DNA of 9,095 nt from a virus (Duplodnaviria; Heunggongvirae; Uroviricota; Caudoviricetes), in IMG/VR virus record IMGVR_UViG_2534681655_000016; one strand, 5' to 3'. Under the pieces are notes generated by a model, which saw only the letters and a program-made list of their open reading frames with translations, had not been told where the DNA came from and ran no database searches. The translations under genes and the position numbers were made by a program. Positions 571 through 9,095 of this stretch are shown piece by piece (the stretch's first letter is position 1; each line of letters starts with the position of its first letter).

Positions 571-1417
571 AAGTACTCAACGAGCTAAGGCAGTTTTATC
601 CTCTTGATGAGCTTCTCAGGGCTGCGGAGATACCGCGCAGTACGTTTTATTATCATCTAAAGGCTCTCAGCAAGCCTGACAAGTATGCGGACGTTAAAAA
701 GCGTATTAGTGAGATTTATCACGAGAATAGAGGCCGATACGGATACCGTAGGGTAACGCTGTCTCTTCATCGAGAAGGGAAACAGATTAACCATAAAGCT
801 GTTCAGCGCCTGATGGGAACCCTCTCACTTAAAGCAGCGATTAAGGTCAAGCGATACCGCTCTTACAGAGGAGAGGTAGGGCAAACCGCCCCTAATGTTC
901 TCCAAAGAGATTTCAAGGCTACGCGGCCAAACGAGAAGTGGGTTACCGATGTTACTGAATTTGCAGTCAATGGGCGCAAGCTGTATTTGTCTCCAGTAAT
1001 AGATCTCTTCAACAACGAAGTTATTTCTTACAGCCTTTCGGAAAGACCAGTGATGAACATGGTTGAGAATATGCCGATCAGGCATTCAAAAAGCTTAATC
1101 CTCACGAGCATCCTGTTCTGCACTCTGACCAGGGATGGCAGTATCGTATGAGAAGATATCAAAATATCCTTAAAGAACATGGTATTAAACAAAGCATGTC
1201 CAGAAAAGGCAATTGTCTGGATAATGCTGTGGTGGAGTGTTTCTTTGGAACCTTAAAGTCGGAGTGTTTTTATCTTGATGAGTTCAGTAATATAAGCGAA
1301 CTGAAGGATGCTGTTACGGAATATATTGAATACTACAACAGCAGAAGAATTAGCCTGAAATTAAAAGGTCTGACTCCAATTGAATATCGGAATCAGACCT
1401 ATATGCCTCGTGTTTAA
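567..1417 (+). pseudogene. insK: IS150 transposase OrfB (InsK, DDE catalytic domain), disrupted by an apparent 1-bp deletion near 1074
   Basis: The ORF track splits the expected ~283-aa protein into 567..1151 and 1148..1417. The first piece ends ...[29 protein letters not shown], while the same DNA read one frame over gives ...[30 protein letters not shown], containing the conserved HSDQG motif. This is consistent with loss of one base between atgc and cgatcagg (1071..1080). It starts at GTG 567. Confidence 0.75.
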
Positions 1418-1443
1418 CTGTCCAACTTTTTGGGGTCAGTACA

Positions 1444-2385
1444 CTGGAAGGCTTTCATCCAGAAACAGTCAAAGTGGAAAACATGCAGCGGCAGATTGCG
1501 TTCCGCCATACCATCGATAAAGCTGTTTACCGTCGCTTCGTCGTAGTTGGTGGTAAATGAAGTGGTTAGCCACAGGCCGAAGGACCACGCGGGCGGCAGC
1601 GCCGGACGACCAGTAAAGCGGGTATAACGATCAAGTACCGCTTTCGGCGTCGGGCCGTCGATAACAAAGTATTCGAGATATTCACTCTCAACGCTGAACT
1701 GCACTTTGGAGACTTTCTCCGATCCCACTTCAAAAGAGACACACTGGGGATGATTGACCAGTACCCCATAACCACGGTTAGTCATGTAGAACGGGATATT
1801 TTTATACGCCTGTTCAGTACTTGTGCCGCCGTCCCGGTTCCAGGTCTCTACCGTCTGGCCATTGCGCACCAGGGCAGTAAAGCGCTCTCCCAGACCGTAA
1901 ACTGTTTCGCCAACGCCAAGATCAAGCCGCTCAAACATATAATTGCGTTGATTATTCGTGTCCTGCACGTAGCCATTATTTTTCACCTGACTACCGGTAA
2001 TACGTTCGCCGTTGCGCAGAAAATCCAGTGACCAGAACTCACCTTTGCTGACACGCGCGCTTAAGTTGCCACTTTTAAACTCAGCATAACGTTCTGTGTT
2101 TTCGATTGTGACCTTCACGTCCTGCAAAATATTGAGCGGGTAATGAGGACCGTTATTCAGCGCCCCCTGAAAATGCTCAATCCGCACACCGACAATACCT
2201 TCCTGTGGGGAGAAAAAGCGCAGCGTAAATAAAGGCGTGTCAAGCTGCCAGGTACGTTCACGTACATCACGGGGGGCAGCATAGACCACCATTTCATTAT
2301 CCTGCTGTTCAACCTCGAACACCTGAAGCGGGTGAATCAAATTGAGGCCAGGTTGAATCAACCAGTTTCCATCGCTAATTTTCAT
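1444..2385 (-). pseudogene. yicI: 5' fragment of alpha-xylosidase gene yicI (glycoside hydrolase family 31), truncated by the IS150 insertion
   Basis: The minus-strand ORF starts at ATG 2385 ([25 protein letters not shown]...) and matches the YicI N-terminus. After about 314 native codons the frame crosses the IS150 right end at 1443/1444 and terminates inside the IS (tail CTDPKKLDS*). Full-length YicI is about 772 aa, so the C-terminal part including the catalytic region is missing here. Confidence 0.85.
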
Positions 2386-2394
2386 TGCCGTTCC

Positions 2395-3777
2395 TTAGTT
2401 CTGCACTTCTTGAGAGGTGAATTGTTGCTGGCAACGGCGTTTACCCTGAGCCAGCTGTTCCATAACGGTTTTCAGATTGTGCGTCGTGAGTGAGTAGTAG
2501 CGTTTAGCGATAATCGCGCTCAGCAAATAACAGATCGCCGGAACAATCGTGAATAGCGCAATAATGATGCTAATCGTGGCGCTGTTCTGCGCTTTTTCTG
2601 CCGCATCATATCCGCCATAAGCCAGCATCCAGCCGATAAGAGCGCCGCCGAAGGCCAACCCCAGTTTGAGCACAAACAGCGTGCCAGCAAAACTGATCCC
2701 GGTCAGGCGTTTACCATTGCACCACTCGCCGTAGTCGACGGTATCGGACATCATTACCCACTGGATAGGTGTCACCAGTTGATGCAACACACCAATCACG
2801 AAGATGAAGACAAACATAGTGATGCTGGCCTGCATGGGAACAAAGAACATCGCGAGGCTAATCACTGCCAGCAGGGCGTTCGTCCACCAGAAGATAGTGA
2901 CTTTACATTTCCAGTCGGTCAGAGGTTTTGCCAGTGCGGAACCAATCAGGTTACCCACGCAATAAGTGGTGAGAAAAGCGACAAACACTTCCGGCGTGCC
3001 CAAAATCCATGTGACGTAATACATCATCGCCCCACCGCGTACGCACACCGCCAGGATATTGAAAATGGTTAGTAAACCGACAATCCGCCACTGGTCGTTT
3101 TGCCAGATATCACGTAAATCTTCCCGCATAGACGTTGTTGTAGGTGGTGCTTCAACGCGTTCTTTAGTGGTGAAGAAACAAAATGCCAGCATCATGAATG
3201 CCACCACGGAAAGGACCGCGATACCGCCCTGGAAACCGAGTGGTTTATTATCACCGCCAATTAAATTAACCAGTGGCATCATCAGAACAGTAGAAAGCAT
3301 GCCTCCCGCGGTCGCCAGCACAAAACGCCAGGATTGCAGCGAGATACGCTGAGTCGGGTCATTGGTGATTACACCACCCAATGCGCAGTAAGGGATATTG
3401 ACGACGGTATAAAGTAAGGTAAGTAGGGTGTAAGTAATTGCTGCATAGATCATTTTGCCGTTCATACTGAGATCTGGCGTGCTATAGGCCAGTACACAGA
3501 CGATCCCGAATGGCAGTGCGCCAAACAGTACCCACGGACGAAATTTACCCCAGCGAGAGCGCGTTCGATCGGCCAACAACCCCATGCAAGGATCGGAAAT
3601 CGCATCCAGTGCACGAGCGACCAAAAACATGGTTCCGACAAAACCGGCAGGAATGCCAAAAATATCGGTATAAAAGAACATCATATATAACATTACGTTA
3701 TCGAAAATAATGTGGCTGGCGGCGTCTCCCATGCCATAACCAATTTTCTCTTTAACGGACAACACTTCACTCTTCAT
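2395..3777 (-). CDS. yicJ: Sugar (glycoside-pentoside-hexuronide family):cation symporter, YicJ
   Basis: Long hydrophobic multi-TM ORF whose translation from MKSEVLSVKEKIGYGMGDAASHIIF... matches YicJ (460 aa). I chose ATG 3777, which has a GAGGAA ribosome-binding site 6-8 nt upstream, over the ORF-track start at 3834. Its stop lies 9 bp upstream of the yicI start, giving operon arrangement yicJ-yicI. Confidence 0.9.
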   Translation of the reverse strand: MKSEVLSVKEKIGYGMGDAASHIIFDNVMLYMMFFYTDIFGIPAGFVGTMFLVARALDAISDPCMGLLADRTRSRWGKFRPWVLFGALPFGIVCVLAYSTPDLSMNGKMIYAAITYTLLTLLYTVVNIPYCALGGVITNDPTQRISLQSWRFVLATAGGMLSTVLMMPLVNLIGGDNKPLGFQGGIAVLSVVAFMMLAFCFFTTKERVEAPPTTTSMREDLRDIWQNDQWRIVGLLTIFNILAVCVRGGAMMYYVTWILGTPEVFVAFLTTYCVGNLIGSALAKPLTDWKCKVTIFWWTNALLAVISLAMFFVPMQASITMFVFIFVIGVLHQLVTPIQWVMMSDTVDYGEWCNGKRLTGISFAGTLFVLKLGLAFGGALIGWMLAYGGYDAAEKAQNSATISIIIALFTIVPAICYLLSAIIAKRYYSLTTHNLKTVMEQLAQGKRRCQQQFTSQEVQN

Positions 3778-4032
3778 CTGCTTTTCCTCGATGCTATAGG
3801 GGTGCTGAGACCGATAACGCATTTTGTAAACCATCCCTGTGAGAGCGAATATTCCGATATCTGGTTATTAATTTATGATTCTTGTTTTATGTGATCGTGG
3901 TAGCGTTAATTCCGCTCATATATCATTGTAAAATATGGGTTTTATATGAACTATAATGCTTTCGTGATAATACGCTGCGTGTATTAGGCGGAAAAAACTG
4001 ATCTGGGGGATGTAGAAACTCAAGGAAGTAGC

Positions 4033-4069: not shown

Positions 4070-4164
4070 GGAAGATCGTCGTCTCCGGTGAGGCGGCTGG
4101 ACTTCAAATCCAGTTGGGGCCGCCAGCGGTCCCGGGCAGGTTCGACTCCTGTGATCTTCCGCCA
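4070..4164 (+). tRNA. selC: tRNA-Sec (selenocysteine tRNA, anticodon UCA), 95 nt, ending in CCA
   Basis: GGAAGATCGTCGTCTCCGGTGAGGCGGCTGGACTTCAAATCCAGTTGGGGCCGCCAGCGGTCCCGGGCAGGTTCGACTCCTGTGATCTTCCGCCA matches recalled E. coli selC. It has the long extra arm typical of tRNA-Sec and the anticodon TCA at 4104..4106. Confidence 0.92.
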
Positions 4165-4326
4165 AACCTCATCCAGCCAGTTCCGAGACACTCCATAAAA
4201 TCATTTATATTCAATGCGATGAATAATCAGCTTGTCCGTAATAGTCCGAGATCATCTCCCTGAATCCGCGAAAAATATGTATAGTAATGTGTATAGATTT
4301 TTTATACGTAGTTTTCAGTTATACAC

Positions 4327-5505
4327 ATGGCCCTAACCGATATACAGATCAAACGTGCAAAACCACAAGACAAACCATACACATTAAACGATGGGCAAGG
4401 TCTGTCATTGCTTATCAATCCCGATGGCTCGAAAGGCTGGCGTTTCCGTTTCCGGTTTGCAGGGAAAGCGCGGTTAATGTCATTTGGCAGCTACGATTTA
4501 GTAAGCCTCGCAGAAGCACGTGAGAAACGCGATACGGCTCGTAAGCAGGTAGCAAACGGCATTGATCCAGTAGCAGAGCGTAAGGCTCAGAAAATTGCTC
4601 AGAAATTATCAACTGAAAACTCTTTTGAGGCCGTTAGCAGAGAATGGCATGCAGCAAAAGCAGATCGCTGGACTTTAGCTTATCGCGAAGAAATTATTAA
4701 AACATTTGAACAGGATGTTTTTCCTTTCATTGGTAAACGGCCAATAGCTGAAATTAAACCCCTAGAACTGCTTGAAGTTCTTAAACGCATAGAAAAACGT
4801 GGAGCGTTGGAGAAAACCAGAAAAGTACGTCAACGATGCGGAGAGGTGTTTCGCTACGCGATCATCACTGGCCGCGCTGAATACAATCCAGCACCTGATT
4901 TAGCTATCGCATTAGCTGTACCGAAGCAAAAACATCATCCTTTTCTATCAGCAGAAGAACTCCCTCATTTTGTCAGAGATCTTGAGGCTTACACAGGTAG
5001 CATAATCACTAAAAATGCAACTAAAATTGTGATGCTTACTGGAGTCAGGACACAGGAAATGCGTTTTGCCACTTGGGACGAAATTGATTTACAAAAAAAG
5101 GTATGGGAAATACCGGCCGAACGAATGAAAATGCGCCGACCACATCTTGTACCACTCTCCACTCAAGTAGTTGAAATTTTTCAACAACTCAAGCTAATCA
5201 CCAAAAACTATCCATATATTTTTATCGGCCGTAATAATCACACTAAGCCAATTTCTAAAGAAAGTGTATCCCAAGTAATAGAATTACTTGGCTATAAAGG
5301 AAGAGCTACGGGCCACGGATTCCGCCATACAATGTCTACTATTTTGCATGAGTACGGATTTAACAGCGAATGGATAGAGTTACAATTGGCTCATGTTGAT
5401 AAGAATAGTATTCGAGGCACTTATAATCATGCCCAATATTTAGAAAAGAGAAGTTCTATGATGCAGTGGTACAGTGATTATATCCTTAATAGAGATAAAG
5501 CATAG
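4327..5505 (+). CDS. int: P4-type tyrosine recombinase/integrase (site-specific integrase of the selC-inserted satellite)
   Basis: 392-aa ORF starting 163 bp after the selC 3' end. The N-terminus (MALTDIQIKRAKPQDKPYTLNDGQGLSLLINPDGSKGWRFRFRF...) is the arm-binding region typical of P4-like integrases. The C-terminus carries catalytic-type residues in GHGFRHT, LAHV and RGTYNH (R...H..R..Y). Confidence 0.9.
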   Translation: MALTDIQIKRAKPQDKPYTLNDGQGLSLLINPDGSKGWRFRFRFAGKARLMSFGSYDLVSLAEAREKRDTARKQVANGIDPVAERKAQKIAQKLSTENSFEAVSREWHAAKADRWTLAYREEIIKTFEQDVFPFIGKRPIAEIKPLELLEVLKRIEKRGALEKTRKVRQRCGEVFRYAIITGRAEYNPAPDLAIALAVPKQKHHPFLSAEELPHFVRDLEAYTGSIITKNATKIVMLTGVRTQEMRFATWDEIDLQKKVWEIPAERMKMRRPHLVPLSTQVVEIFQQLKLITKNYPYIFIGRNNHTKPISKESVSQVIELLGYKGRATGHGFRHTMSTILHEYGFNSEWIELQLAHVDKNSIRGTYNHAQYLEKRSSMMQWYSDYILNRDKA

Positions 5506-5560
5506 AATAATAGAAGTTAATGCTGTATACTGTAAATTAACAATATAGTAAGGATTGAAA

Positions 5561-6427
5561 ATGAAGAAGACAGTACTTATAACTGATTTAGATAACACAC
5601 TATTCGACTGGTTTAGCGTTTGGTATCATAGCTTTAATGCAATGCTAAATAAAGTCGTTGAGATTTCCGGTTTTTCTAAAGACGAGCTTATTGCACAGAT
5701 AAAACCGATTCATCAAAAATATGGTACTGCCGAATACTCTTTTATTCTAGAAAGCATACCTCTTTTACAAGAAAAATATGGTGATAGAAACTCCATCAAT
5801 TTAGTTATGGATGATGCTATACACGCTTTCAGAAGTGAGAGAAAGAAATATCTTTCTCTGTACCCAACAGTAATGGACACTTTGAGTGTATTAAAAAGTA
5901 AAGGGTGTTATATTGTCGCGTATACTGAATCCAAAGCTTATTACTCCAATTTCCGCTTAACAAGATTAGGATTAGATGGTGTGATTGATGTCCTTTTCTC
6001 TCCTGAAGATCATGAAATCCCTGATGGTGAGAAAAAACAAGATAAATATAATCTAATGCTGACAAAGCAAGAATATACACCTATTGATGAAATTAAACCA
6101 AACCCACAACTTCTTCTGGACATAATAAAATCAATTGGTGCCACACCAGAAGAGTGTGTATATATAGGTGACAGTGAAATGAAAGATATAGAAATGGCCC
6201 AAAAAGCAAACGTATCAGATGTTTTTGCAAGCTATGGAACGAATCATTTTGAAGAGAACAAGGAGGGATATGAATTACTCCGTGCGGTAACCCACTGGAC
6301 TGATGCTGATGTTGAAAGGGAAAGAAAAATTAAAGAAAATGCCTTCGGAGCAAAACCCACATATGTAGCCAAACAATTTTCAGATATTTTGTCTTTTTTT
6401 GAATTTACCAAATTTAAAGGAAAATAG
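5561..6427 (+). CDS. HAD-superfamily (haloacid dehalogenase-like) hydrolase/phosphatase, cargo gene 1 of the satellite hotspot
   Basis: All four HAD motifs are present in order: motif I LITDLDNTLFDW (DxDxT), motif II IVAYTES, motif III conserved Lys in IKPNP, motif IV GDSEMKD (GDxxxD). There is a cap-like insertion between motifs I and II. An AAGGA ribosome-binding site lies 8 nt before ATG 5561; the ORF track's TTG at 5555 is less likely. The gene is very AT-rich compared with the flanks. Confidence 0.8.
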   Translation: MKKTVLITDLDNTLFDWFSVWYHSFNAMLNKVVEISGFSKDELIAQIKPIHQKYGTAEYSFILESIPLLQEKYGDRNSINLVMDDAIHAFRSERKKYLSLYPTVMDTLSVLKSKGCYIVAYTESKAYYSNFRLTRLGLDGVIDVLFSPEDHEIPDGEKKQDKYNLMLTKQEYTPIDEIKPNPQLLLDIIKSIGATPEECVYIGDSEMKDIEMAQKANVSDVFASYGTNHFEENKEGYELLRAVTHWTDADVERERKIKENAFGAKPTYVAKQFSDILSFFEFTKFKGK

Positions 6428-6428
6428 A

Positions 6429-7061
6429 ATGAACAATCTAGAATTAAAGAAACATGATGACGCTATAAAATTAGAAAATCTCAAGTTGAAAATTGATATC
6501 TGGAAGACAGTTGTTGACGTTCAGAAACATTTTAATGATCTTGAGATGAAGGTTAGAAACTTCGGAATTTTGATCTTGTCTGCATTTATTGGTGCAATTG
6601 GTGTAAGCTTTAATTCCGGCGCTGAATTTATAGCCTTTGGCAATCATTACTCTGTTGCTGCCATTCTTGCTTTCGGGGCATCTGTTGTTTGGTTGTTATT
6701 TTATTTTGTTGACGTTTACTGGTATCACCCATTACTTCTTGGAGCTGTAAAGAAAGGTTCAGAACTCGAAAAAGAAATTGCATCCGACATCCCAGGAATT
6801 AATCTTACAGAAACCATAGGAAAAAGTAGCCCAAAAGATATTTTGCTCTGGAAAAATATGCATAGTACTGGAAAAGCTAACCTTTTCTACTTTGGGGTTT
6901 TAGCTGTTCTGTTAACTATTTTTATTTCTCTACTGTGCTTTAAATCCCCGCAAAAGACAAATCAACTAAATGAATTAAATATTAAAGCAAATTGCACTAG
7001 AAACAGTAATTACAATGGAGTTAATTGCATTATCGCATCACAGCCAAGTGACAACAAATAG
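6429..7061 (+). CDS. Small membrane protein with a charged, coiled-coil-like N-terminal domain and three predicted transmembrane helices, cargo gene 2
   Basis: ATG 6429 lies 1 nt after the HAD stop (TAG 6425..6427), with an AAGGA ribosome-binding site inside the upstream gene's 3' end, suggesting translational coupling. The protein has three hydrophobic segments: FGILILSAFIGAIGVSF, YSVAAILAFGASVVWLLFYFVDVYWY and FYFGVLAVLLTIFISLLCF. The N-terminal ~45 aa are Lys/Glu-rich. No enzymatic motif was recognised. Confidence 0.75.
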   Translation: MNNLELKKHDDAIKLENLKLKIDIWKTVVDVQKHFNDLEMKVRNFGILILSAFIGAIGVSFNSGAEFIAFGNHYSVAAILAFGASVVWLLFYFVDVYWYHPLLLGAVKKGSELEKEIASDIPGINLTETIGKSSPKDILLWKNMHSTGKANLFYFGVLAVLLTIFISLLCFKSPQKTNQLNELNIKANCTRNSNYNGVNCIIASQPSDNK

Positions 7062-7151
7062 TGCACTTTATCACTCTTTACCCCAACTGCATGTACTTAC
7101 CTTGTGAGCACAGAGACGCGCTATAAATAAACACTTTACTGCTGGCGGGCG

Positions 7152-7170
7152 GTGCTTTCCCCGCCTCGCC
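7152..7170 (-). other. cos: P2/P4-type cos site (19-nt cohesive-end sequence GGCGAGGCGGGGAAAGCAC) with flanking 7-bp inverted repeats
   Basis: The plus strand reads GTGCTTTCCCCGCCTCGCC, the exact reverse complement of the recalled P2/P4 cohesive end. It is flanked by inverted repeats GCGGGCG (7145..7151) and CGCCCGC (7171..7177). Its position downstream of psu matches the P4 genome map. Confidence 0.7.
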
Positions 7171-7271
7171 CGCCCGCTTTGCGGGGCGGTTTTAATGCAG
7201 TTGCACTGACACGCTCAGGCCGCGCCGGGAATGGCGCGGTCTGCAGAAAATGAGGCAGGAAAACGCATGCA

Positions 7272-7306
7272 AAGCCATGCACCTTATCGATGCATGGCTT
7301 TTTTCA
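7272..7306 (+). terminator. Rho-independent terminator-like hairpin (10-bp perfect stem AAGCCATGCA/TGCATGGCTT, 9-nt loop, then a T-run)
   Basis: Perfect inverted repeat at 7272..7281 and 7291..7300, followed by TTTT (6 T's counting the stem end). It lies between the convergent cargo operon and psu. The plus-strand orientation is canonical; the minus strand has a weaker U-tract. Confidence 0.5.
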
Positions 7307-7334
7307 GTAAAAACGGGCGGATTTTCGGGGAATT

Positions 7335-7907
7335 TTACACAGACTGACGTGATGCCAGTTGCGCACTTTTACGCGAAAAAATCATGTTCTGCGCAGGGGT
7401 GAATTTTTCACGGCTGTCATCCACCGAAGCCGCGTCAGGCCTGAATCCGATGGTCGTTAAAATGTCGCTATCCTGTGCGGAATAATTAATTTTTTCCCCC
7501 TTCGCAAGCCAGGACAGAAGGGCTTCACGCAGGGCATCTGTGGCACGCTGTATGGCACAGTTTCGGGCAATGGCCGTCAGCTCACTGTAGCCCATCAGCT
7601 CCGGTGCCAGTGCCGCCGCCAGTGCTGTGCCGTGCTGCTGCATAAAATCATTCAGCCGGTCGCGGATGCTGATGTGCTGAACGGCTTCATGCGAACGAAT
7701 ATAACGACCGGCAGCCTGATTCACCTGCCATTTTCTGACTTCGATAATATTGCGTAATTCGTCCAGGCGACTGACGTTTCTGCCTTCCCCGGACAGAAGC
7801 CGCAGATATTCCTGTTCGGCCGCAGCCAGCTCATTTTTGCGTTGCAGCCATGCTGCTTTGTTATTCTGACAGGTGTCAAAGGCCTGCTGTAAGGCTGTGC
7901 TTTCCAT
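7335..7907 (-). CDS. psu: P4 Psu (polarity suppression / capsid decoration protein)
   Basis: 190-aa ORF whose length and sequence (MESTALQQAFDTCQNNKAAWLQRKNELAAAEQEYLRLL...) match recalled phage P4 Psu. It is the last gene of the sid-delta-psu late operon. Confidence 0.88.
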   Translation of the reverse strand: MESTALQQAFDTCQNNKAAWLQRKNELAAAEQEYLRLLSGEGRNVSRLDELRNIIEVRKWQVNQAAGRYIRSHEAVQHISIRDRLNDFMQQHGTALAAALAPELMGYSELTAIARNCAIQRATDALREALLSWLAKGEKINYSAQDSDILTTIGFRPDAASVDDSREKFTPAQNMIFSRKSAQLASRQSV

Positions 7908-7980
7908 CGTTATCTCTTTCTCATCATGCTGAAGAATAAAAATACGGTGTGCGGCGACGGCCGGGGTTAACCGGCAGCCC

Positions 7981-8481
7981 TCATTCCAGACGCAGCGAAT
8001 ATGATTGTGTTTTTAACCGTACTGGCGGCAGTTCCTGTTTTTCATGCAGGCGTTCTGCCAGTTCGTCCGGTGTGACCGGGCGGACAATGAAGCGGTTGAT
8101 GGTCTGAAGCGTTTTAAACACCAGACCACAGCCCGGATCCGTGCACACATAAAAACGTTCGGTGACTTCCTGAGACAGACGCCGCGATGTTCTTGACAGT
8201 GCAAGGCCTTTACATCTCCGACAACAATATCCGGTAACAAGCATTCTTTTCGGGCGTTTCATACTGCCGGAGGCAGAAGTCAGTGAATCGCGGTATCTCT
8301 GTTTGCCTGAAATGTATTCCATTCCTGAATCTTTACAGTCAGAGAAAAAGCTTTCACTCGCTTCAAATGTCGCAGAGCAATAAATATTCCGGCACTGTGC
8401 AATCATTATCTTGGTGCCATCGTCCATGAAATGTGCGCGGCGGGTGTGAGCAACATGTCCACACGACGGGCAGTAAATCAT
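7981..8481 (-). CDS. delta: P4 Delta (Ogr-like tandem zinc-finger late-gene transcriptional activator)
   Basis: 166-aa ORF with two Cys-rich Ogr-like repeats (CPSCGHVAHTRR...C...C and C..C......CTDPGCG). Its size matches P4 delta. The ATG overlaps the sid stop in an ATGA arrangement at 8478..8481. Confidence 0.88.
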   Translation of the reverse strand: MIYCPSCGHVAHTRRAHFMDDGTKIMIAQCRNIYCSATFEASESFFSDCKDSGMEYISGKQRYRDSLTSASGSMKRPKRMLVTGYCCRRCKGLALSRTSRRLSQEVTERFYVCTDPGCGLVFKTLQTINRFIVRPVTPDELAERLHEKQELPPVRLKTQSYSLRLE

Positions 8482-9095
8482 GACAGCAGTCCTCTGGCCT
8501 TAAGCTCTGCACCCTGCTGGTCTATTTTGTCCTGCCACACCTTGCGCTGTGCCGGTGTGCCTGCCACCTCATAATCCATGTGCGGGAGTGTTGCCGCTGA
8601 CAGTCCGGTCAGCCGGAGAACCGGCTCGCCGGTGAGGCTGATTTGCATCTGTTTTATTTTCTGTTCCAGCGATGATTTCACCTGCTGCATGACAGCTTTA
8701 TCGGGTGCGACGTAGCCCTGATGCCCGGTGGTGTTGGCGAGCGGATTTTCCTGTACCAGAATGCTCAGATGCATTGCCCGGACAAGCGCCTCACAGGTTT
8801 CATTCAGGGCGTGTTCCAGCTCATGCTCTGCATACAGACTCAGAGGTGATGATGTGCCTTCCGGTAGGCGGTGGCCGTGCTGTCACACGCCCCTTTCAGG
8901 CGTTCACGTTCGAAATTCAGCACCACGGCCAGATTGTCATATTCCTGTACCAGCTCCCGGCGTGCCACGCGCTCAATGTGGCGCTGTTTCAGCTCGTCGC
9001 TCAGGACACCACCGGCTGCACGAAAGGCCGTGCGCCAGTCGTCAGCGTCGTTTCCGTCGGCCTGCGCCAGCGCATTTTTTTCCTGCTCTGCCCGT
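8478..9095 (-). pseudogene. sid: P4 Sid (capsid size-determination external scaffold), apparently frameshifted; the 5' end lies beyond the window
   Basis: The C-terminal part is in the frame ending at TGA 8478..8480 and is open back to a stop at 8883..8885. The N-terminal part (RAEQEKNALAQADGNDADDWRTAFRAAGGVLSDELKQRHIERVARRELVQEYDNLAVVLNFERERLKGACDSTATAYRKAHHHL*) is in a different frame, running from the window edge to a TGA at 8840..8842. The two frames overlap at 8843..8882 and their combined length fits the ~244-aa Sid, implying a 1-bp indel there. Confidence 0.7.

Follow-up and report, generated by a model that had tools for sequence, protein, structure and literature searches.

The window analysed here, which is the whole stretch of 9,095 nucleotides of DNA from IMG/VR record IMGVR_UViG_2534681655_000016, carries the tRNA-Sec gene, int, the hotspot cargo, cos, psu, delta and sid one after another, which is the gene order of P4 in prophage orientation. 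The following features were assigned, with positions counted from the first letter of the window:

1-1441: IS150, inserted in yicI
1414-2385, minus strand: rest of yicI
2395-3834, minus strand: yicJ
4070-4164, plus strand: tRNA-Sec gene (selC), the integration target (ARAGORN; Rfam RF01852, 83.8 bits)
4144-4166: att core (attL), GACTCCTGTGATCTTCCGCCAAA, a 23-bp repeat made of the 3' end of tRNA-Sec plus 2 nt
4327-5505, plus strand: P4/phiR73-type tyrosine integrase (int), 392 aa, intact (Pfam Arm-DNA-bind_3, Phage_int_M and Phage_integrase)
5561-6427, plus strand: cargo gene 1, HAD-family hydrolase of Hydrolase-TM (PADLOC PDLC03008, E = 6e-198, full length)
6429-7061, plus strand: cargo gene 2, membrane protein (PADLOC PDLC03009 Hydrolase-TM, E = 6e-140, full length)
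7145-7199, minus strand: 55-bp conserved cos core, -29 to +7 around the cohesive end, matching P4 at 54/55 positions
7148, minus strand: hotspot-side flank, position +4, where the cos strand has C (G in 107/107 sampled sites)
7152-7170, minus strand: cohesive-end sequence GGCGAGGCGGGGAAAGCAC, 19 nt, the location of the staggered terminase nicks
7170-7193, plus strand: cos-proximal GC stem CCGCCCGC-TTT-GCGGGGCGG followed by TTTT, terminator-like, within the conserved core
7220-7239: GC hairpin CCGCGCC-GGGAAT-GGCGCGG on the psu side, 50-69 nt from the nick
7271-7307: perfect 11-bp hairpin with a T-run on the plus strand and an A-run/T-rich tail for the minus strand, identical in P4
7335-7907, minus strand: psu (polarity suppression/capsid decoration), 190 aa, intact (PF07455, E = 1e-88)
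7981-8481, minus strand: delta (Ogr/Delta late-gene activator), 166 aa, intact, of P4 delta length (PF04606)
8478-9095, minus strand: sid (capsid size determination), frameshifted by a 1-bp deletion near 8843 and running off the window

The Rfam search of the window returned tRNA-Sec alone. The 23-bp att repeat at its 3' end recurs 9.96-10.6 kb downstream in relatives of this element, a distance that places attR beyond the window. The same integrase protein is annotated in the RefSeq relatives, and the best integrase matches in the phage collection are about 48% identical to it. Besides its PADLOC match, cargo gene 1 matches the Pfam families HAD_2 and Hydrolase, and hydropathy analysis of the product of cargo gene 2 revealed three hydrophobic segments (45-63, 76-94 and 152-170). 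As assigned from the full-length matches to both PADLOC models, the pair is the Hydrolase-TM anti-phage system of Rousset 2022, a HAD-like hydrolase plus a transmembrane protein that was validated against T7 (Rousset et al. 2022, PMC9122126). In P4-like satellites, cos adjoins the defence-gene hotspot that separates int from psu (PMC9122126; PMC8628076), and the core gene set of such satellites has been defined (de Sousa & Rocha 2021, PMC8628076). Here, the integrase, psu and delta were all found, in the order int-hotspot-cos-psu-delta-sid that marks this core (PMC8628076); the intact sid also expected of a P4-like satellite was not found in the window. phiR73 is described as a cryptic prophage of P4-like type that occupies selC (Sun, Inouye & Inouye 1991, as cited in PMC6174562; Inouye 1991, as cited in PMC8628076). 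We therefore consider it quite probable that a satellite prophage of the P4-like, phiR73 type is integrated in E. coli at the selC 3' end and that the cos site is its own.

Near-identical relatives are complete satellites with the att repeat at either end and a length of 9.96-10.6 kb, close to the 11.6 kb of P4, and they carry the full P4 gene set. The genes alpA, epsilon and the alpha primase-helicase, like the rest of the replication, immunity and regulatory half of the element, would lie past the window end; these three are present in the relatives that share the int-cargo-cos block. The window has intact copies of int, psu, delta and the two cargo genes, and no helper phage was seen in it. 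A reading made beforehand from the sequence alone (hereafter the sequence-only reading) had pictured a cos retained in a decayed island; what we observed instead is the canonical layout of a P4-like prophage that has complete relatives and in which only sid is visibly damaged.

The damage to sid is a single missing base, CAGAAGG having become CAGAGG, as revealed by BLAST comparison with MS 16-3 and P4 and by comparison of the translation with an intact homologue. A 1-bp deletion is also present in IS150 orfB (near 1074), where it yields two ORFs of 194 and 89 aa. Because this is the second such deletion within 9 kb, the sid frameshift may be either a sequencing or assembly error or real decay. 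In classical genetics, P4 sid mutants continue to be packaged, in heads of P2 size that contain multimers. Packaging of classical P4 thus does without sid, and a genuine defect in this gene would be expected to alter capsid size and not the use of cos.

Two further observations concern the surroundings of such elements. The IS150 insertion site in yicI is shared with E. coli 510016 (NZ_CP025851.1), whose selC island differs. E. coli ESDR8 (L257, 14629-34299) has the satellite and the LEE pathogenicity island arranged in tandem at selC; an IS21-family element interrupts the satellite's sid, and the only att match found downstream is a partial one of 14 nt.

To place the cos junction, the joined genome ends of P4, P2 and 186 were compared with the window. 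The plus strand at 7152-7170 reads GTGCTTTCCCCGCCTCGCC, the reverse complement of GGCGAGGCGGGGAAAGCAC, and GGCGAGGCGGGGAAAGCAC corresponds both to nucleotides 1-19 of P4 (NC_001609) and to the feature annotated as 'cosL; left cohesive end' in P2 (NC_001895). The cohesive end of phage 186 differs from it by 2 nt. This comparison bears out the proposal of the sequence-only reading that the 19-mer is the reverse complement of the P2/P4 cohesive end. With up to 3 mismatches allowed, the 19-mer is unique in the window; shuffled sequences gave a chance expectation of 0.01, which rules out an accidental GC-rich match. On the psu side, the 329 bp adjoining the cohesive end are 98.5% identical to the P4 right end, as is the DNA of the psu region to that of P4, and window positions 7171-9095 align with P4 11624-9699 at 98.5% identity. 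Hence, the P4 right end abuts the cohesive end as it does in circular P4. The 19-mer sits at the place expected for the cos of a P4-like satellite, so that packaging by a helper is the proper interpretation of the site, and the inference to this effect in the sequence-only reading is reasonable.

The same 19-mer and core occur in P2-like phages, so that the site might in principle mark the end of a P2-like prophage remnant and not of a satellite. On one side of it lies psu, at a Pfam E-value of 1e-88 and within DNA that matches P4 over its whole aligned length, and on the other lie an integrase and a defence cargo; we give this alternative practically no chance. A P2 prophage end is refuted by the genes present, as no portal or terminase gene follows cos.

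Conservation around the cohesive end was examined in 120 IMG/VR loci with the exact 19-mer, which reduced to 107 distinct sequences; a P2 portal gene was found nearby in 93 of the loci, psu in 20 and neither in 7. Per-position comparison of the 107 distinct P2/P4-type sites revealed a conserved span that reaches to about -35 in the right-end flank and to +7 in the left-end flank. As far as the sampled sequences go, this span fits the '55-bp core' that is attributed to Ziermann & Calendar 1990 in the citing papers PMC9594776 and PMC5694545. Apart from +4, each conserved position of the core has the consensus base or that of P4 in the window. Its right-end flank (-29 to -1, TGCATTAAAACCGCCCCGYRAAGCGGGCG) is identical to that of P4 and matches all well-conserved consensus positions of the 107 sites. 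In the left-end flank (+1 to +7), P4 reads CGCGCGC and both P2 and 186 read TGCGCGC; the window reads CGCCCGC, which has the C of P4 at +1 and agrees with YGCGCGC at 6/7 positions. A scan of IMG/VR for the exact 19-mer followed by a base other than G at +4 returned no contigs. The cos had been called intact, and this description holds for the unchanged 19-mer; it does not hold for the core, which carries the rare G-to-C change at +4.

The +4 substitution also explains the symmetry of the site. The inverted repeats GCGGGCG/CGCCCGC that had been noticed around the 19-mer are real, and their arms (7145-7152 and 7170-7177) in fact extend to 8 nt with 100% complementarity. As a feature of cos, however, such symmetric GC-rich repeats are not standard, because P4, P2 and 186 read YGCGCGC at this place; in canonical sites, GCGGGCG faces the complement of YGCGCGC with a central mismatch. 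The perfect flanking repeat thus results from the G-to-C change at 7148, which makes the left half-site an exact mirror of the right half-site (GCGGGCG).

As G occupies +4 in all of the 107 distinct sites, this position may be strongly constrained, and the change could make cleavage less efficient. In the extreme case it would abolish or strongly reduce nicking and leave a dead cos in a fixed island that moves only vertically or by general recombination. Such a loss would suit the invariance of +4 in the sampled sites, the empty IMG/VR scan and the frameshifted sid of the window, as well as the rarity of the variant in E. coli, where it was found in at least 14 of 5,426 complete genomes. A cos-type match is present in 2,220 of these 5,426 genomes, and the exact junction of the window in 8 of them. 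Moreover, NCTC8623 and ETEC4090, two relatives at the selC locus with related HAD cargo, keep the canonical TGCGCGC, which is a further point in favour of a lost site and which also indicates that C at +4 is the derived state.

The natural distribution of the variant speaks against such a loss. A metagenome scan returned three sites with a base other than G at +4, namely the junction of the window, a P2-like site reading TGCACGC, and a selC satellite reading CGCCCGC beside a PARIS-like AriA/AriB cargo. The last of these junctions was also found in six further complete genomes of E. coli, 042 and VR50 among them. In total, the +4C allele occurs in combination with at least three psu-delta-sid modules, two unrelated cargos and several chromosomal backgrounds, and it is therefore probably still packaging-competent. 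A 186-type P2-like prophage has TGCCCGC as well, and the change restores perfect dyad symmetry and does not break it. In addition, the int-cargo-cos block hardly varies between strains whose chromosomal backgrounds diverge by as much as 2.2%, and its left boundary at attL suggests integrase-mediated arrival. Taking both sides together, we regard a dead cos as unlikely. From its natural distribution, the +4C variant probably still supports packaging; its spread could instead reflect homologous recombination after transfer by another route. A more specific idea is that the +4C allele may be a functional cos variant with an altered terminase interaction, in which more efficient or helper-specific nicking would favour the packaging of this selC-satellite sub-lineage or alter its range of helpers; we consider this idea speculative and rather improbable.

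Several loci carrying the variant can be placed precisely. In metagenome contig L258, the PARIS-like AriA/AriB (DUF4435) cargo at 11189-13598 adjoins the CGCCCGC flank, and in E. coli 042 (NC_017626.1) the corresponding junction lies at about 4240481-4240611. IMGVR_UViG_2579778675_000004 (L129), a 29.5-kb 186-type P2-like prophage, reads GGCGAGGCGGGGAAAGCAT at the cohesive end and then TGCCCGC (about 8845-8869), which is the same G-to-C change at +4 in a helper-type phage.

Comparison of the window with five of the eight E. coli genomes that have the exact junction revealed a 3,006-bp int-cargo-cos block of 99.8-100% identity. In the same genomes, divergence is as high as 2.2% in the chromosomal DNA of yicI-yicJ and as high as 5% on the psu-delta-sid side, which includes a different, short delta. 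Divergence among these relatives begins at 7183-7218, directly past cos, and this abrupt switch marks cos as a recombination boundary. The left edge of the near-identical block coincides with attL, which suggests that the block arrived by site-specific integration of a circular element. When window positions 4164-7170 are set against those from 7171 onward in L001 and L254-L257, identity switches within about 15-50 bp of cos. Within the int-cargo block, four substitutions (at 4395, 5379, 6435 and 6945) are found in the window only and in none of the five near-identical relatives.

The psu side of cos contains several further stems. The hairpin at 7220-7239 extends to 11-nt arms with 91% complementarity and has a DNA folding energy of -14 kcal/mol (z = -5.0). 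In P4 it is identical except for one flanking base, and in P2 it is absent. A covariation test in fixed register on 21 P4-like sequences revealed no compensatory pair for this hairpin; in these sequences the 3' arm keeps its sequence also where the 5' arm varies. Thus, the second hairpin proposed in the sequence-only reading is present exactly as described, but its absence from P2 and the lack of covariation in fixed register indicate that it is not a general component of cos. Inspection by eye revealed alternative perfect hairpins at the same place, one with arms ACGCCGCG/CGCGGCGT in PigCaeca_2, CH4804 and L061, and another with arms CAGGCC/GGCCTG in E6 and L087. When the region 7216-7243 is compared with L254, L255, L256, L061 and L087, GC-rich hairpins that differ from one another are seen at equal distance from cos, which hints at selection for structure over sequence. 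A structural role for the 7220-7239 hairpin is possible, the register-shifted alternatives being observations by eye and not a statistical result.

Closer to the cohesive end, the stem at 7170-7189 is conserved in P2-like and P4-like sites. Beyond the 7220-7239 hairpin, the structure at 7271-7307, with its stem at 7271-7301, folds at -11.5 kcal/mol (z = -5.5) and likely terminates transcription in both directions, from the cargo operon and from the psu operon, which converge here. The cos-proximal stem is also linked to the sequence just past the psu stop codon by a long-range inverted repeat of 11 nt with 91% complementarity (7170-7180 and 7310-7320).

It may be asked whether these inverted repeats and hairpins are mainly terminators or RNA-stability elements of the cargo and psu-delta-sid operons with no role in packaging, and we find the arguments for and against this about evenly balanced. 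The perfect 11-bp stem at 7271-7301 is followed by TTTTTT on the plus strand, the stem at 7170-7189 together with its TTTT scores as terminator-like, and the RNA of the psu 3' region folds with z = -5.3; moreover, P2 packages normally with no counterpart of the 7220-7239 hairpin. This hairpin, however, has no T-run on either strand, and the 7170-7189 stem lies inside the core that P2-like and P4-like sites have in common whatever transcription units flank them. A role in transcription would also complement the cos function of 7145-7199 and would not compete with it.

Returning to the satellite prophage with its cos site, the identity of the cohesive end and of the psu-side flank with P4, the gene order, and the intact int, cargo, psu and delta genes can be read directly from the DNA, and the following course of events, in line with established P2/P4 biology, may be proposed. 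After excision and replication, the terminase of a P2-like helper (gpM/gpP) would recognise the core of about 55 bp at 7145-7199 and introduce staggered nicks on either side of 7152-7170. The circle of about 10 kb would then be packaged into capsids made by the helper, with the Hydrolase-TM cargo carried along. We infer that this particular copy would be cleaved and packaged despite its G-to-C change at +4. If, by an assumed analogy with lambda cosN, the terminase reads its half-sites symmetrically, this change would be the one least likely to be harmful. The hairpin at 7271-7307 would serve as a transcription signal between the convergent operons, and the one at 7220-7239 may be regarded as P4-lineage sequence of uncertain role.

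The site confirms the selC island as a P4-like satellite; in principle, its anti-phage cargo could be moved in P2-type particles, which is established biology. It is an ordinary cos of a known type of element with a known cargo at a known integration site, all of which have already been well described. Its only mildly unusual feature is the +4 substitution, which creates the perfect dyad and, being rare, offers a small handle on how the P2 terminase reads its site. If the +4C allele were indeed a functional variant with altered terminase interaction, natural variation at this position could be used to dissect half-site recognition by the P2 terminase. The switch in divergence at cos is one more example of cos bounding cargo exchange in P4-like satellites.

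Among the systems compared, P4 (NC_001609) shares with the window the 19-nt end, 54 of the 55 core positions, the cos-psu-delta-sid side at 98.5% identity and both hairpins between psu and cos. In contrast to the window, P4 has G at +4, an integrase that targets leuX instead of selC, and no 1-bp deletion in sid; on the hotspot side the two sequences are unrelated beyond +7, where P4 carries gop-beta-cII in place of Hydrolase-TM. The retronphage phiR73, as far as its description in the literature goes, is likewise a P4-like satellite in the selenocysteine tRNA gene with its cargo between int and cos, the cargo there being a retron. The Peduoviridae helpers P2 and 186 have the same cohesive end (2 nt different in 186) and the conserved flanks from about -35 to +7. 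Unlike the window, they keep cos between a hotspot (old/tin in P2) and the portal gene Q and read TGCGCGC at +1 to +7, and P2 has no counterpart of the 7220-7239 hairpin. Finally, the P4 defence hotspot beside cos (Rousset et al. 2022, PMC9122126; NAR 2026, PMC13586616) has its cargo at the same position, right next to cos in the interval from int to psu, and the sharp recombination boundary at cos reported for it is also seen here, so that the present locus represents one more instance of this hotspot.
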